DNA of 64,000 nucleotides from NCBI GenBank assembly GCA_963740395.1, contig CAVUEP010000013.1, positions 7,290-71,289 on the forward strand, in the 5' to 3' direction. Origin of the DNA: an uncultured beta proteobacterium. Lineage in GTDB: Bacteria; Pseudomonadota; Gammaproteobacteria; Burkholderiales; Burkholderiaceae_C. Under the pieces are notes generated by a model. It saw nothing but the letters and a program-made list of their open reading frames with translations, was not told the DNA's origin and did not search any database. Below, piece after piece: positions 45,145 to 52,048 of this stretch. A program made the translations under genes and the position numbers. How positions within the stretch are numbered: the first letter of the stretch is position 1; every line of letters starts with the position of its first letter.

Positions 45145-47307
45145 TCAGACGCGCCCGCCGCTCGTCGGCACCGAGCGCAGGTCCTGGGCCACGCGCCCTT
45201 CGCCGAGCACGATCACGCGCGACGCGCTGGCGATCGTCTCGGGCCGGTGCGCGACGATCACGCGCGTCAGCGAAAGCTGCCGCACCTGCTGATTGACGAT
45301 GCGCTCACGGTCGACGTCGAGCGCGCTCGTCGCCTCATCGAGCAGCAGGATGCGGGGGCGCTTGTACAGGGCGCGCGCCAACAGCAGCCGTTGCTTCTGG
45401 CCGCCCGAGAGGCTGGCGCCCATGTCGCCGACCAGCGTGTGGTAACCCATCGGCATGGCCTCGATCTCGTCATGCACCGCGGCCATCTGAGCACATTCCG
45501 TGATCCATTCGCTGTCGGGCGCATCATCGAAGAAGCAGATGTTCTCGGCCACGGAACCGGCCAGCAGCGCGTCCTCCTGCATCACCGTGCCGACCATCGC
45601 GCGCCAGCGCGCCAGCCCGAGTTGGCGCAGCGGCACGCCGCCCACGCGAAACTCACCGGTGTCCGGCGCGTGAATGCCCAGCATCAATTTCAGGAGCGTC
45701 GTCTTGCCGCAGCCCGAGGGGCCGACGATGGCCACCGACTCGCCCGGCTCGATCGTGAAATTGATGCCCTTCAGCACCTCGGGCTCGCCGTCGGCATAGC
45801 GAAAGCTCACGCCGCTGACTTCGATGCGCGGCGGCGCCAGCGCCTCGGCGGCCAAGTCGCCCCCCTGCCGCGGCAGCCCCTCGTCCTCGGGCGCAGCCAG
45901 CACGATGTCGGCAAGCCGCTCGCCCTGCAGGCGCAGCATGCGCAACTCGACCGCCTTGTCGATCAAGGCGCTGATGCGCTGCGCAAACTGCTCCTTGAAC
46001 GCGATGAACGCGAACAGCATGCCGACCGACAACTGCTGATCCATCACCAGCAACGCCCCCAGCCAGACCACCGCAATGCGCTCGACGCCGAACAGCAGCC
46101 GGTGCAGAACGGAGAACATCAACTCGAGCTTGCGCGTGGCCAGGTCGGCATTCATGGTGTCGACGACACGGTTCATGAAGCGCGCCTGGCGATCGGCTTG
46201 GCGGTTGAACAGCTTGATCGACTGCACACCGCGCAGCGATTCGAGAAAGTGGCTCGACTGCCGAGCCTCGTGCACCAGCGCCTCCTCGGTGGCCTCGCGC
46301 AGCGGCCTGAAGAAAGCCCAGCGCAGGGCGGCATAAGCCGCCACCGCCGCCATCACCACCGCCGCCAACGCCACGCTGTAGATCAGCATCATCGCCAGCG
46401 TGACGACGACCAGCAGGCCATCGAGCACGGCTTCGATGAAGTGCGTGGTCAATGTCTTCTGGATCTGCTGTACGGTCGCGAAGCGAGACCAGACGTCGCC
46501 GGTGTGCCGCTTCTCGAACCAGGCCATCGGCAGGCGCAGCAGGTGCGCAAACACGTTCGACAGCCACTGCAGGTTGAGTGTGGCCGACAGATGCAGAACC
46601 GACCAGGACCGGATCGCCGCGGCGCCGACCTGCAGCAAGACCAGAAGACCGAAACCCAGCACCAACGTCAACAGCAGGTCGCGGTCGGCGCTGACGAGCA
46701 CCCCGTCGACGACCCACTGCAGGAAGAACGGGCTCAACAGAACGAAGGCCTCGAGGCCCGCCGCGACCAGGAAGATCTGCGCCAGCGAGCGCTTGAGGCC
46801 GCGCACCGGCCCGAGCAGTTGCTTGAGCGTGACCGTCTGCCGCTCGGTCTTGGCCTTGAAGTCCGCTGCCGGCGTCAGCTCGAGCGCAATGCCGGTGAAG
46901 TGGCGCGACAGCTCGGTCAGCTTCATGCGCCGCACGCCACGCGCGGGGTCGTGCAGCGTGACTCGGTTGCCCCGCACTTCGGTCAGTACGACGAAGTGAT
47001 TCAGGTCCCAATGCAGGACGCACGGCAAGGCCAGTTGGGCCAACTGCTCGGGTTCGGCGCGCAATGCGCGAGGGTTGAAATTCAACTGTCCGGCCATGCG
47101 CACCAGGTCGGCCATCGTGGCGCCCTTGAGCGACAACGAAAAGCGCCGGCGCAGCGTCGGCAGGTCGGTGCGGTAGCCATGCGCCGCCGACACCATCGCG
47201 AGACACGCCAGCGTGCACTCGGCCGCCTCGGTCTGCAGGATCATCGGCGCGCTGTGCCCGCCGAGCCAGCCAGCCAGCGACAGATCCAGCGAATCCGGGC
47301 TCGCCAT
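45145..47307 (-). CDS. Peptidase C39 domain-containing ABC exporter (bacteriocin/peptide processing and export, CvaB/RaxB-like)
   Basis: The N-terminal C39 domain shows ILQTEAAECTLACLAMV (catalytic Cys) and HWDLNHFVVL (His). A six-TM domain follows. Walker A is GPSGCGKTT, the signature is LSGGQKQRLLLARA, and Walker B is ILLLDEATSALD. The ATG overlaps the HlyD stop as TGATG. Confidence 0.85.
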   Translation of the reverse strand: MASPDSLDLSLAGWLGGHSAPMILQTEAAECTLACLAMVSAAHGYRTDLPTLRRRFSLSLKGATMADLVRMAGQLNFNPRALRAEPEQLAQLALPCVLHWDLNHFVVLTEVRGNRVTLHDPARGVRRMKLTELSRHFTGIALELTPAADFKAKTERQTVTLKQLLGPVRGLKRSLAQIFLVAAGLEAFVLLSPFFLQWVVDGVLVSADRDLLLTLVLGFGLLVLLQVGAAAIRSWSVLHLSATLNLQWLSNVFAHLLRLPMAWFEKRHTGDVWSRFATVQQIQKTLTTHFIEAVLDGLLVVVTLAMMLIYSVALAAVVMAAVAAYAALRWAFFRPLREATEEALVHEARQSSHFLESLRGVQSIKLFNRQADRQARFMNRVVDTMNADLATRKLELMFSVLHRLLFGVERIAVVWLGALLVMDQQLSVGMLFAFIAFKEQFAQRISALIDKAVELRMLRLQGERLADIVLAAPEDEGLPRQGGDLAAEALAPPRIEVSGVSFRYADGEPEVLKGINFTIEPGESVAIVGPSGCGKTTLLKLMLGIHAPDTGEFRVGGVPLRQLGLARWRAMVGTVMQEDALLAGSVAENICFFDDAPDSEWITECAQMAAVHDEIEAMPMGYHTLVGDMGASLSGGQKQRLLLARALYKRPRILLLDEATSALDVDRERIVNQQVRQLSLTRVIVAHRPETIASASRVIVLGEGRVAQDLRSVPTSGGRV

Positions 47308-48554
47308 CACACGCGAGCGGCCATGCCCAGCAGGGGCTCGATCAACCACTCGTAGAGCTTGCGCCGCTCCACGGGCACGTCGGCGTCGAGCTGCATGCCG
47401 GGCGCCAGCGGTTGCAAGACCCCGTAGGCCGACACCTGCTGGCGCTCCAGCGCCACCGTGATGCGGTACATCGGCTCGCGCGCCGACCCCGCCCAGGGCT
47501 GCCCAGCCAGTTCGGCCGGCTGCAGCGGCGCCAGCGACACCTGCTCGATGCGCCCATGCTGATGGCCGAATTTCTGGTAGGCGAAGGCGTGGTAACGCAG
47601 CAACACCGACTGCTCCGCGCGCAGGAAGCCCACGGCACTCGACGGCGCGTACAGGTGCGCCTGCAGCGCCGAGCCCGCGGGCACCAAGCTGGCCAGCGTG
47701 GAGGCCGCAGCGACCGTTTGCCCTGCAGAGACCAGCACCGCGCTGACGACGCCGTCCTGTGGCGCGCGCACCACCAAACTGCGGCGCGCTTCGCTCTCTG
47801 CCTTCATTTGCGCCAGTTCGGCCCGTTCGCGCTCGATCTCGCCCTGCCTCGCGCCGGACTGCAGGGGCAGGTCGCGAAGCTGCGCTTGCGCAGCGGCGAT
47901 CTCGCGCTCGTGCGCGCTGCGCTGACGCAGCTGCGCCTGGCGTTGCGTGCGCAGCCCCAGCAACTCCTCGGTCTTGGCCTGGACTTGGGCCGACGAGACG
48001 AAGTTGTCGCTGCGCAGCGACTCGAGCCGCGCCAACGCCTGTTCGGCCAGCGCGATCCGCTGCGTCAACAGGGCCGACTCGGCATCGAGGCTACCGCGCT
48101 CCTGCTGCAGGTCGGCACGACGGCGCACCAATGCGGCCTCCTGGCTGCTGAGCAAGGCCTGCTGTTGCTGCGCCGCAGCGCGCAAGCTCGACTCGCGGTC
48201 CGCCAAGGTGCGTTGCACCGCGGCCTGCGTGTCGCCGCCGGCGGCGGCGCGGTCGAGCGACAGCACGAAGAGCACGTCGCCGGCACGCACGCTGGCGCCT
48301 TCGGCCACGCGCCGCTCCAGCACCAGTGCATCCTGGGGCGGCGACAGACGGATCACGCCGCTGTCGGGCACCAGCACGCCACTGACGCGCACCTTGCGCG
48401 TGTACTCGCCGAGCGCCAGGAAGGCGCCCACGGCCAGCACCGCAACGACCACCGCGGTGGTCAGCACGGTCAGCGAGAGCGGGCGAACCAGCTGAATCTC
48501 ACCGACCCACGAGGTCTGCTGGGCGTCCAGCGCCTCGCGGCGGAAGATGTTCAC
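47307..48554 (-). CDS. HlyD-family membrane fusion / secretion adaptor protein (CvaA-like)
   Basis: It starts MNIFRREALDAQQTSWVGEIQLVRPLSLTVLT, followed by a single TM segment, a long coiled-coil and a beta-barrel C-terminus. The GTG start overlaps the small-ORF stop as GTGA. Confidence 0.8.
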   Translation of the reverse strand: MNIFRREALDAQQTSWVGEIQLVRPLSLTVLTTAVVVAVLAVGAFLALGEYTRKVRVSGVLVPDSGVIRLSPPQDALVLERRVAEGASVRAGDVLFVLSLDRAAAGGDTQAAVQRTLADRESSLRAAAQQQQALLSSQEAALVRRRADLQQERGSLDAESALLTQRIALAEQALARLESLRSDNFVSSAQVQAKTEELLGLRTQRQAQLRQRSAHEREIAAAQAQLRDLPLQSGARQGEIERERAELAQMKAESEARRSLVVRAPQDGVVSAVLVSAGQTVAAASTLASLVPAGSALQAHLYAPSSAVGFLRAEQSVLLRYHAFAYQKFGHQHGRIEQVSLAPLQPAELAGQPWAGSAREPMYRITVALERQQVSAYGVLQPLAPGMQLDADVPVERRKLYEWLIEPLLGMAARV

Positions 48555-48712
48555 CAGCCCTTGGTTGGCAGCGACGTGCCGCCGCTGACTTGGCGCAATG
48601 CCGGTGCGTCGAGCTCAATCGGCTGGCGCACTGGCTGAGCTGGCGACTCGGCGCGAGTCTTGCCGACGATGCGTTGAACCCAAAGCCCGACAGTCTTTTG
48701 TACCTTGTTCAT
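48551..48712 (-). CDS. 53-aa double-glycine-leader precursor peptide (predicted 8-aa mature product TSLPTKGW)
   Basis: It is absent from the ORF track because it is under 60 aa. I translated it base by base: MNKVQKTVGLWVQRIVGKTRAESPAQPVRQPIELDAPALRQVSGGTSLPTKGW*. GGAG lies 5 nt upstream of the ATG. The stop is coupled to the HlyD start as GTGA. The leader has hydrophobic residues at -4, -7 and -12 relative to the GG. Confidence 0.6.
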   Translation of the reverse strand: MNKVQKTVGLWVQRIVGKTRAESPAQPVRQPIELDAPALRQVSGGTSLPTKGW

Positions 48713-48781
48713 ATGCGCTCCTGATTGGCTGGCGTCGTGGAATCGACACCGGATTCCAGCAGCCTTCGGGCGCGCACGTAA

Positions 48782-48797
48782 CTGTCAACCTTTACAG
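48782..48797. promoter_or_regulatory. CTGT-N8-ACAG inverted repeat (lux-box-like or LexA-box-like) upstream of the peptide gene
   Basis: ctgtcaacctttacag lies 5 nt after the luxR-type stop and 70 nt upstream of the peptide ATG. On the minus strand it contains TTGACA. Its 12-nt core recurs at 49546..49557. Confidence 0.4.
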
Positions 48798-48802
48798 GGT
48801 CC

Positions 48803-49516
48803 TCAATGAAGGAGCCCGAGCCTCAGGGCCTTTACCACGGCAACATGTTTCGAATTGCAGTTCAGCTTCTGCATGGCGTTCTGCAGGTGGAACACCGCCG
48901 TGCGGTCGCCGATGCCCAGGATCGTGCTGATCGCGCTCGTCGTCTTGCCGTCCATGGTCCAGCGCAGGACTTCGAGCTCGCGCGGCGTCAAGGCCGGCAG
49001 CTCGGGGCGGGCACCCTCGGACACCAGCACCCGCATGGCCGTGTCCTGGGCGTGCACGGCAAATAGCTGCAAGTCCGCAACGATCCGTGTCAGTTCGGCT
49101 CCGTCGGACGGCAGCGCCTGATCTCGCTCAACGCCCAAGAGAAAGTGTCGCCCCTCGGGTAGATGCAGCGCCATCGCGATGCCGTTCCGGTACCCGAACT
49201 GGGCCTGACGCTCCCACAACTCCGCGGAGTTGGCGTTCACGTAATTCCGTTGTCCCCAGATGATGGGCACCGTGTGGCGCTTGCAATGCTGTGCGATCGG
49301 ATCGCGCTTGCTGATGCTCAGGTCGTCGAATGTCTCAACGTACGCAGCAGGTGCGTTATGTATCGAAACGAACTCAGGCTCACGGCCCAGGCGGTCGACC
49401 GCAACCGTCGACGCGACCCTGTCGAAACCCAGGCGCTGGGCAAAGCGAATCACCACCGACCTGAACTGGTCCTGGTTCTGCGCTTCCAACACGGATTGGT
49501 AGTCGCCTTGCAGCAT
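48803..49516 (-). CDS. LuxR-family regulator with an N-terminal autoinducer-binding-type domain and a C-terminal GerE HTH (LuxR solo; no luxI in the window)
   Basis: The HTH reads LTPRELEVLRWTMDGKTTSAISTILGIGDRTAVFHLQNAMQKL. The ligand-domain block PAAYVETFDDLSISKRDPIAQHCKRHTVPIIW has exactly the TraR spacing for positions 57/61/70/71/85, which read Y, F, D, P, W. Confidence 0.8.
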   Translation of the reverse strand: MLQGDYQSVLEAQNQDQFRSVVIRFAQRLGFDRVASTVAVDRLGREPEFVSIHNAPAAYVETFDDLSISKRDPIAQHCKRHTVPIIWGQRNYVNANSAELWERQAQFGYRNGIAMALHLPEGRHFLLGVERDQALPSDGAELTRIVADLQLFAVHAQDTAMRVLVSEGARPELPALTPRELEVLRWTMDGKTTSAISTILGIGDRTAVFHLQNAMQKLNCNSKHVAVVKALRLGLLH

Positions 49517-49541
49517 TACTTCGCAGTTTCGCCTGGGTTAC

Positions 49542-49557
49542 CCGGCAACCTTTACAG
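49542..49557. promoter_or_regulatory. Second copy of the CAACCTTTACAG half-motif, between the luxR-type gene and the divergent 124-aa gene
   Basis: ccggcaacctttacag shares 12 of 12 nt with 48786..48797, but the left arm is CCGG rather than CTGT. It lies 26 nt upstream of the luxR-type ATG. Confidence 0.3.
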
Positions 49558-49637
49558 CTATCGGCGGGCCTGATCTTTGTCCACACTCTTTGCCATCGGA
49601 GCCACTCGGTTCCGTTTTCCAACGGCAAGGAGTGCAC

Positions 49638-50012
49638 ATGAATTCATCCTGGACTGTTCGCGCGTGGCCGGCCCTATTGTGGCAGGCCGGTAACCCCTCG
49701 CAACTGCAATTCGATCACGTTGACACGCAGGTCTTCCCGTCCGACCGGGACGATGCACCGGTCTGCGGCCAAACTGTCTGGGCCGGCCCGCTGGACGACG
49801 GCCAGGTTGGCGTGGCCTGGGATTGGGTGCAGGTGTCCCAAGGCGTGGTCGCGATGGCCGACCCGATGTGCGTCGTCAGCAATCTGCGCCTGATCGGCCC
49901 GCAGGGTGAGGTGCTGACGGCCTGGGAGTCCGCGCGGCACCTGAACCAGATCGTCTACGGCCTGCCCTGGCAAGGCGAGGTGCAACGCGCCCTGCACCAC
50001 CTGAACGACTGA
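49638..50012 (+). CDS. Hypothetical 124-aa cytoplasmic protein, divergent from the LuxR-type gene
   Basis: The ATG is preceded by AAGGAG and gives MNSSWTVRAWPALLWQAG. The protein is Trp-rich, with no signal peptide and no recognised domain. Confidence 0.4.
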   Translation: MNSSWTVRAWPALLWQAGNPSQLQFDHVDTQVFPSDRDDAPVCGQTVWAGPLDDGQVGVAWDWVQVSQGVVAMADPMCVVSNLRLIGPQGEVLTAWESARHLNQIVYGLPWQGEVQRALHHLND

Positions 50013-50051
50013 GCGTGCGTCGGCGCGCGGGGCCGCAGGCCGCGGGCGCCC

Positions 50052-51218
50052 TCACTTCAATGCGGCTGTGCGCAGCTGGCGTGACACGAAGGTCAGGCCG
50101 GCCGCGACGACCAGCCCGCACACCAGCAGCGGCACCGCCATGTCAGGCACGCCGATGGCCTCGCCCTTGAGTACACGGTTCATCAGCGTCACCTGGCCAA
50201 GCGCCGGCACGGCCAGATGCCAGGGCGCCTCGCCGCTCTGGTTGAACACGCTCACCAAGGGCAGCAGTGACACGCCCAGAATGACCACGGTGTTGTTGGC
50301 CTGCGCCTCCTTGAAGGTTCTACAGCGAATCGCAATGGCCATCATCAGCGCAGCCAATGCGGCCGCCAGCGGGGCCAGCAGCGCCAGCATCAGGCCCACC
50401 TCGCGCAGTCCGAACTGGAACATCGCGGCCAGCGTCTCGCTACGCAACAGGTACTGCGCGGGCAGGAACGAGAAGCAGCTGAGCAAGGCGATCAGCATGC
50501 CCACCGACGAGACGGCGCCCCATTTGCCGAGCACCAGCGACAGCCGGGACGCCGGGTTCATCAGCAGCGGCTCGAGCGAACCGCGTTCGCGCTCGCCGGC
50601 CGTGGTGTCCAGGGCCGCATTCAAGGCCCCGTACAGCACCGCCATCAGGACGAAGAAGGGCAAGATGCTGGTCAGGCGCGCGGCGCGCGACTGCGGATTG
50701 GCCAGGTCGCGGTCCTGCACGTCCAGCACCTCCAGTGTCGCGGGGGCCACCCCGCGCAGTGCCAACCGCAGCACCGCTTGCTCGTTGGAGAAGCCACGCA
50801 GCAGCCGCGTGAGCCGGCCGACGCTGCCGCTGGCGCGTTGGTTGGCGCTGCTGGAGACAATCTCGACCAGCGGCGCCTCGCCACGCGCCAACTCCGCTTC
50901 GAAGTCCTGGCCGACGACGAGCACCGGGTCGCCCAGCGATTGGTTGGTCAGCCGCTGCTCGTAGTCGGCGGGTGCCGCATTGACGCGATAGGTCTGGCGC
51001 AACAGGTAGTTCTGCAAAGTAGGCGCCTGCTCGACGCCCGCGACGAGCACGGTGCGTTCCTCGGCGCGCTTCTCGATGCCGGCAACGAGCGCCGACAACG
51101 CGATCAGCACCAAGGGCCCGATCGCCACCGACGACAGCAGCACCACGACCAGCGTGCGCCGGTCGCGCAGGGCGTCGAGCAGCTCCTTGCGAAAGACGAT
51201 CCACGCGTTCATGACCAT
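50052..51218 (-). CDS. ABC-2 type transporter permease (NatB-like)
   Basis: It starts MVMNAWIVFRKELLDALRDRRTLVVVLL. It has a large extracytoplasmic loop and then five C-terminal TM segments. An alternative ATG at 51212 overlaps the ATPase stop as ATGA. Confidence 0.7.
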   Translation of the reverse strand: MVMNAWIVFRKELLDALRDRRTLVVVLLSSVAIGPLVLIALSALVAGIEKRAEERTVLVAGVEQAPTLQNYLLRQTYRVNAAPADYEQRLTNQSLGDPVLVVGQDFEAELARGEAPLVEIVSSSANQRASGSVGRLTRLLRGFSNEQAVLRLALRGVAPATLEVLDVQDRDLANPQSRAARLTSILPFFVLMAVLYGALNAALDTTAGERERGSLEPLLMNPASRLSLVLGKWGAVSSVGMLIALLSCFSFLPAQYLLRSETLAAMFQFGLREVGLMLALLAPLAAALAALMMAIAIRCRTFKEAQANNTVVILGVSLLPLVSVFNQSGEAPWHLAVPALGQVTLMNRVLKGEAIGVPDMAVPLLVCGLVVAAGLTFVSRQLRTAALK

Positions 51219-52048
51219 GTTTGCTCCCTGGCGCTGCGCGCGGTCCCTCCGAGAGGGACGCCACCTTCCTTGGGACGGCCCTGCGAAAGGTTCGCTCCTG
51301 GGTCGGCATTGAACGCCAGCTTGACGAAGGTCTCTTCGAAGTCTTGTTCGCCACAGGACGCGTTGAGATCGGCGACGCTGCCTTGCGCCACGGTGCGGCC
51401 GTGCGAGACGACGATGACGTGGTCGCACAGGCGCTCCACCTCCTGCATGATGTGGGTCGAGAACACGATGCACTTGCCCTCGACGTCGCGCAGGCGCCGC
51501 AGCGATTCGCGCAGCGCGCGCGTGGCCAGCACATCCAGGCCATTGGTCGGCTCGTCCAGGACGATGTTCGGCGGGTTGTGCACGAGGGCGCGCGCGAGAG
51601 CGGTCTTCATGCGCTCGCCCTGGCTGAAGCCCTCCGTTCGCCGCTCCAGCAGCGGCTGCATGTCCAGCATATGCGCCAGTGCATCGGCACGCTGCGACGC
51701 GGCGACATCACTCATGCCGTGCAAGCGACCGTAGTAGACGATGTTCTCGCGCGCCGTCAGTCGCGCATACAGCCCCCGCGCATCGCTGAGCACGCCCATG
51801 CGCGCAAGCGCAGCCCGCGGCGCGCTGCGCACATCGATGCCGTCCACACGCAACTCGCCCGCATCGGGCGCCAGCAGCGCTGCGAGCAGGCGCAGGGTCG
51901 TGGTCTTGCCGGCCCCATTGGGCCCGAGCAGGCCGGTAATGCGGCCGTCCGCTGCCTGGAAACTCACGCCGTCGACGGCTTGCACCGTGCGCGCCTTCTT
52001 GCCGCGGCCCTGCGAGAAGCGCTTGGCCAAGCGCTGGACTTCGATCAT
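51209..52048 (-). CDS. ABC transporter ATP-binding protein (NatA-like)
   Basis: It starts MIEVQRLAKRF. It shows GPNGAGKTT, FSQGERMKTALARA and NIVLDEPTNGLD. The ATG overlaps the upstream stop as ATGA. Confidence 0.85.
   Translation of the reverse strand: MIEVQRLAKRFSQGRGKKARTVQAVDGVSFQAADGRITGLLGPNGAGKTTTLRLLAALLAPDAGELRVDGIDVRSAPRAALARMGVLSDARGLYARLTARENIVYYGRLHGMSDVAASQRADALAHMLDMQPLLERRTEGFSQGERMKTALARALVHNPPNIVLDEPTNGLDVLATRALRESLRRLRDVEGKCIVFSTHIMQEVERLCDHVIVVSHGRTVAQGSVADLNASCGEQDFEETFVKLAFNADPGANLSQGRPKEGGVPLGGTARSAREQTWS

Follow-up and report, generated by a model that had tools for sequence, protein, structure and literature searches.

Regulators of the RsaM family act in quorum sensing (QS) by N-acyl homoserine lactones (AHLs), and the described arrangement closest to the locus reported here is the 'type 6a' topology, in which RsaM occurs with a LuxR solo in Pelomonas, Thauera, Kinneretia, and Albitalea, as well as in Xenophilus (review PMC10710839). 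We analyzed a block of five genes at positions 45145-50012 of a 64,000-nucleotide stretch of DNA from an uncultured beta proteobacterium (assembly GCA_963740395.1, contig CAVUEP010000013.1), hereafter the window. The block encodes a LuxR solo, a divergently transcribed RsaM protein, a short peptide with a double-glycine leader, an HlyD-type membrane-fusion protein (MFP), and a peptidase-containing ATP-binding cassette (ABC) transporter (PCAT). With type 6a it shares the divergent rsaM–luxR-solo pair, the lack of an adjacent luxI, and the Burkholderiales lineages in which it is found. It differs in its apparent output: the review (PMC10710839) reports neither a peptide nor a PCAT, whereas here the pair stands next to a lux-box-like site and a double-glycine peptide gene, often with PCAT and HlyD as well. 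Judged from sequence, the block is, by a modest balance of probability, a LuxR-solo/RsaM switch driving a secreted peptide, which would be a signal or a microcin.

Other described systems resemble the block in part. The AHL circuits with RsaM of Burkholderia cenocepacia (CepI–BCAM1869–CepR) and P. fuscovaginae (PfsI–RsaM–PfsR) also place RsaM beside a LuxR-type regulator, and the BCAM1869 fold is shared, but in the present locus no LuxI was found, the pocket of the regulator lacks the AHL-binding Trp, and a peptide gene lies downstream of luxR. Class II microcins, such as microcin V (CvaC, the PCAT CvaB, and the MFP CvaA), are exported by systems that likewise combine a double-glycine leader, a C39 PCAT, and an HlyD-type MFP within a single operon; here, however, the 8-residue core is far shorter, no immunity gene was found, a LuxR solo and RsaM would provide regulation, and the exporter is absent in some loci. 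Double-glycine signaling in Gram-positive bacteria (ComC/ComAB/ComDE; BlpC) offers PCAT-processed peptides with hypervariable, pherotype-like mature forms, yet its receptor is a membrane histidine kinase, in contrast to the cytoplasmic LuxR-type receptor of this Gram-negative host, which joins an autoinducer-binding domain (ABD) to a helix-turn-helix (HTH) domain. The Xanthomonas RaxX–RaxB/RaxC system with RaxST is a Gram-negative case in which a PCAT and an MFP process and export a small peptide, with regulation by PhoPQ/RaxRH where the present module has a LuxR solo. An earlier note on this DNA had drawn a parallel to RaxX-RaxAB. This parallel fails on the defining features, as the module has no tyrosine sulfotransferase and the cores carry no conserved Tyr, and a RaxX-like sulfated peptide was rejected on these grounds. 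The same note had not recognized the arrangement as a described system, which holds for one part of it only: the LuxR–RsaM pair is already published as type 6a (PMC10710839), while the literature searched contained no description of such a pair linked to a family of double-glycine peptides that is both conserved and hypervariable and lies behind a lux-box-like site. It is this link that appears to be new.

The elements of the block are located in the window as follows.

45043-50069, strand not applicable: accessory insertion, approximate extent, from comparison with the empty site of a LuxR-less relative in the genus (G006)

45145-47307, minus strand: PCAT, a C39 peptidase fused to an ABC transporter (Pfam Peptidase_C39, ABC_membrane, and ABC_tran; PCAT1 alignment; start check)

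47307-48554, minus strand: HlyD-family MFP, a type I secretion adaptor (HlyD_3; TIGR01843, type_I_hlyD)

48551-48712, minus strand: double-glycine-leader precursor of 53 amino acids, leader at residues 1-45 (...LRQVSGG) (sequence; homolog family in 80 loci)

48554-48577, minus strand: predicted mature core TSLPTKGW (cleavage after the double glycine, as expected from the PCAT/C39 mechanism; motif conservation)

48782-48797, strand not applicable: lux-box-like palindrome CTGTAAAGGTTGACAG (CTG-N10-CAG), 16 bp, unique in the window and conserved across loci

48803-49516, minus strand: LuxR solo with ABD and HTH and a non-canonical pocket (Pfam; LasR alignment; pocket comparison over 90 homologs)

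49638-50012, plus strand: protein of 124 amino acids identified as the QS regulator RsaM (DUF4902), divergent from luxR in type 6a topology (AlphaFold2 model; Foldseek; DUF4902; Trp quartet; PMC10710839)

The anatomy given in the earlier note was borne out, with the five co-localized genes found about where it had put them, between mnmG and an ABC-2 transporter. From the mnmG side, the order is PCAT, HlyD, peptide, and LuxR, followed by the divergent 124-residue protein. Overlapping stop and start codons couple the genes for the peptide, HlyD, and PCAT, as the note had described: the GTG start of HlyD overlaps the peptide stop (GTGA), and PCAT begins at the ATG at 47307, which overlaps the HlyD stop (TGATG). 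All of the domains it had proposed for checking were matched with Pfam (Peptidase_C39, ABC_membrane, ABC_tran, HlyD_3, Autoind_bind, and GerE). Its observation of a LuxR-type regulator lacking a LuxI and standing directly upstream of a double-glycine peptide also stands, with PF00765 absent from the genome matches.

The arrangement is not peculiar to this genome. A scan of genome contigs from relatives with the LuxR sequence yielded 80 loci, all of them in Burkholderiales (Rubrivivax, Roseateles, Mitsuaria, Piscinibacter, Aquincola, Paucibacter, and metagenome-assembled genomes). The recurring neighborhood is mnmG, PCAT and HlyD where present, peptide, LuxR, RsaM, ABC-2 permease, and ATPase, and because this gene order recurs in 80 loci of other Burkholderiales genomes, the arrangement is conserved far beyond chance. 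The gene for RsaM is divergent from that of the LuxR solo in every locus (80/80), and a short peptide gene lies 3' of the LuxR gene in nearly every one. The exporter genes are found in about two-thirds of the loci. Co-conservation with LuxR, which the earlier note had sought for the exporter, thus extends to the peptide gene and the lux-box-like site in nearly all 80 loci and breaks down for the exporter in about a third. Two groups illustrate the variation. In five Roseateles loci (L047/L048/L059/L061/L064), the peptide carries four tandem xDPSPKGTW repeats, and a standalone C39 peptidase, a MerR regulator, and an NAD-dependent epimerase take the place of PCAT and HlyD. In another clade (L035/L038/L039/L042/L060), LuxR is followed by a 43-residue peptide ending in LLPRNGW, with no exporter and with mnmG about 500 bp downstream.

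The 124-residue protein, which starts at the ATG at 49638 (plus strand) and had been labeled a Trp-rich unknown, is identified from its predicted fold and from sequence conservation as RsaM, a known regulator of AHL QS. An AlphaFold2 model computed from a 28-sequence alignment (A1; mean predicted local distance difference test score 72) has strands wrapping helices, which is the architecture described for RsaM. The top Foldseek match of the model in the PDB is the RsaM homolog BCAM1869 of B. cenocepacia (4o2h), with a template-modeling score of 0.60 and a match probability of 1.00; a search of the ESM Atlas with the protein gave no match. DUF4902 (PF16245) matches 24 of the 28 homologs, with a best E-value of 2.1e-5 that falls just short of the Pfam gathering cut-off. 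A quartet of tryptophans is invariant in the same alignment, and RsaM proteins are reported to carry a set of four conserved tryptophans (PMC10710839). The label of unknown was dropped accordingly, and the possibility of a novel partner protein was rejected on the basis of the fold match and the DUF4902 matches. The earlier note had also held that the locus resembles Gram-positive peptide QS more than AHL circuits. The identity of RsaM and the published LuxR–RsaM topology lead to the opposite view, in which the module is a regulatory cassette of AHL QS that has been rewired and not a design of the Gram-positive kind.

The peptide belongs to a hypervariable family. In the window, its gene is preceded by a Shine-Dalgarno sequence, the leader ends in ...ELDAPALRQVSGG, and cleavage at the double glycine would release TSLPTKGW, a core of 8 residues with a computed monoisotopic mass of 888.47 Da. 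A homolog search with the peptide returned only 14 close relatives, all unannotated. Across the family, the leaders conserve the double-glycine motif ELxxxxLxxVxGG and an N-terminal ...RW... region. In contrast, the cores are hypervariable, both in sequence (TSLPTKGW, GGGSTGLPTKGW, APKGTW...APKGTW, and GPNATWGPNATW) and in length (6-35 residues), and they share a conserved C-terminal motif, P-x-[KRN]-G-x-W, which often occurs in two to four tandem copies. The combination of a variable core and a conserved C-terminal motif is suggestive of a specificity element. Because the motif is conserved, the N-terminal part is hypervariable, and tandem repeats are frequent, the core is suggested to have a specific extracellular role, either as a signal or as a narrow-spectrum microcin-like effector.

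The exporter appears intact. The Peptidase_C39 domain of PCAT is matched with an E-value of 7e-34, and its alignment to PCAT1 (4ry2) shows that the catalytic Cys, His, and Asp are retained. The top NCBIfam match of PCAT is NHLM_micro_ABC1, of the NHLP family, and falls under its cut-off; the 45-residue leader matches neither NHLP nor Nif11, and a bacteriocin export system of the NHLP/Nif11 type was rejected. These features bear on the best-surviving alternative, which is possible but improbable: a QS-controlled microcin, in which the LuxR solo would sense the AHLs of neighbors or another environmental signal and induce an antibacterial peptide exported by PCAT and HlyD. The leader resembles those of the microcin V type, the pairing of PCAT with HlyD is that of microcin export, and bacteriocin arms races typically involve hypervariable cores. 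In addition, it is common for LuxR solos to respond to foreign signals (PMC4338825). Against these stand the size of the cores, since characterized class II microcins run to tens of residues, and the sub-threshold NHLP-family match together with a leader of another type. Furthermore, no candidate immunity gene was identified within the insertion, which weakens a bacteriocin reading but leaves a signal reading unaffected.

The regulator qualifies as a LuxR solo, as it contains both an ABD (Autoind_bind, E=3e-22) and an HTH (GerE, E=1e-16), and no cognate luxI was found beside it or in the 86%-complete genome. A search for LuxI (PF00765) gave no match in the window, nor in the 3.3-Mb genome as a whole. 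It is also the sole ABD-containing LuxR of the genome, with other matches spanning the HTH domain only. Its pocket departs from that of LasR at Y56 (A), W60 (Y), Y64 (F), and T75 (I), while D73, P74, W88, and Y93 are retained. This departure is shared by the family: among 90 LuxR homologs, the position of LasR W60 is Y or F in all 90, that of Y56 is T, A, or C, and that of Y64 is variable, with D73, P74, and W88 kept. The Trp at LasR position 60 is near-invariant among AHL receptors. Measured against the contact residues of such receptors (TraR W57, Y61, D70, P71, W85, and G113; LasR W60), the set is incomplete in this protein, and it was rejected as a canonical AHL receptor. Since the canonical AHL-binding Trp is missing from its pocket, the protein probably has a ligand other than an AHL, in analogy to other solos with divergent pockets.

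A second and rather unlikely alternative takes this argument further. Under it, the secreted core (TSLPTKGW or the repeat type) would itself be the autoinducer, re-imported or otherwise perceived and bound by the ABD of LuxR, with the response tuned by RsaM, so that the AHL/LuxI half of the circuit is replaced. That the hypervariable cores represent pherotypes, comparable to the streptococcal ComC/ComD groups, with the peptide gene in luxI's place in a LuxI/RsaM/LuxR cassette, is an equally doubtful detail of the proposal. In its favor are the missing LuxI, the divergence of the pocket from AHL receptors, and the location of the peptide gene, which occupies a position that luxI often takes relative to rsaM and luxR, with the box in between. 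Pocket classes also co-cluster with classes of the peptide C-terminal motif, though this pattern is confounded by shared ancestry and so gives no evidence of co-evolution. We know of no LuxR-type ABD that binds a peptide, and this counts against the proposal, as do the bulk of an 8-residue peptide relative to an AHL-sized pocket and the need for a transporter in Gram-negative peptide uptake, of which none is seen in the module.

Between the LuxR and peptide genes lies the candidate regulatory site. The palindrome CTGTAAAGGTTGACAG is 6 bp past the LuxR stop and about 85 bp 5' of the peptide ATG. In most of the 80 loci, including those without an exporter, a palindrome of the form CTGTAA-N4-TGACAG directly follows the LuxR stop, with conserved arms and a variable center. 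A lux box was taken to be a dyad of about 20 bp with CTG/CTGT...ACAG arms upstream of a target promoter; the CTG-N10-CAG element resembles such a box and is a putative LuxR site. A scan of the region for sigma-70 promoters and terminators found no promoter above chance, as expected for a GC-rich genome. A second exact copy of CTGTAAAGGTTGACAG is present elsewhere in the genome (G000:C17:11469-11484; L092:1501-1516), in surroundings unlike those of the window: nearby are a Gp49/HigB-like toxin with an HI1420-like antidote (L092:2134-2726) and two duplicated AIRS_C-like fragments. This copy may be another LuxR target, or it may be due to chance.

Returning to the LuxR-solo/RsaM switch, we propose the following sequence of events. 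The module was inserted between mnmG and the ABC-2 transporter in one Burkholderiales lineage (Rubrivivax, Roseateles, Mitsuaria, Piscinibacter, and genera related to them). Modulated by the divergent RsaM, the LuxR solo most likely binds CTGTAA-N4-TGACAG just 3' of its own gene, at CTGTAAAGGTTGACAG in the window, and would thereby activate the translationally coupled operon in the order peptide, HlyD, PCAT. The ribosomally made peptide would be cleaved after the double glycine by the C39 domain of PCAT, and the short core, TSLPTKGW in this organism, would leave the cell through PCAT, HlyD, and a chromosomal TolC. Outside the cell, the core may act as a signal or as a narrow-spectrum microcin-like effector.

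Several observations weigh against this proposal. The exporter is missing from about a third of the loci, so the peptide there must be exported otherwise or may act differently, and in the clade of L035/L038/L039/L042/L060 the peptides have no double-glycine leader. The missing immunity gene is a further point where a microcin role is concerned. In addition, the box fits the CTGT-N8-ACAG arms of the LexA consensus. This raises the improbable alternative that the palindrome is a LexA (SOS) box, that the peptide operon is induced by DNA damage, and that the link to LuxR is incidental. Colicin and microcin genes are often under SOS control, which favors such a view. No RecA (PF00154) was recovered from the draft genome, probably due to an assembly gap, and the SOS box was therefore checked at lexA. 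An SOS-like box, CTGGATAAAAATACAG, lies upstream of this gene (L095; G000:C19 around 33300) and has an AT-rich center. The center of the module box is unlike it, being GC-containing and variable, which argues against an SOS box, as does conservation of the element specifically directly after the luxR gene; the LexA explanation was retained only as a minor rival. That the block is a decaying remnant, its peptide gene and exporter unexpressed and kept by chance, is very improbable: many loci do lack the exporter and the peptide repertoire is variable, but domains and catalytic residues are intact, translational coupling is tight, and the leader, C-terminal motif, and regulatory site are conserved, the last across many genera.

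The approximate limits of the module follow from a relative in the same genus without the LuxR gene (G006, locus L096), in which mnmG abuts the ABC-2 permease with a gap of 176 bp. As this relative has an empty site, the five-gene block is, on sequence comparison, an accessory insertion of about 5 kb at an origin-proximal mnmG / ABC-2 hotspot. The GC content of the LuxR/RsaM stretch (window 48500-50000) is about 0.63, with higher values in the flanks (0.66-0.72). The ABC-2 transporter is a flanking gene, because it is present next to mnmG in LuxR-less relatives as well; it was rejected as a component of the system, in agreement with the earlier view that it is unrelated. As called, the open reading frame of its permease (window 50052-51473, minus strand) has a long Arg-rich N-terminus. 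The actual start probably lies close to residue 87 (MVMNAWIVF...) and overlaps the ATPase gene.

LuxR solos and RsaM are both widespread, and the block supplies a concrete, conserved candidate output for type 6a pairs. It thereby makes testable both the targets of type 6a LuxR solos and the way in which RsaM exerts its effect. If the peptide is an inhibitor, it would represent an unusually short microcin-like family of Burkholderiales, marked by a conserved C-terminal Trp motif. If it is the ligand, this would be the first case of a LuxR-type ABD sensing a peptide, and the module would be a Gram-negative counterpart of the pheromone systems of Gram-positive bacteria.

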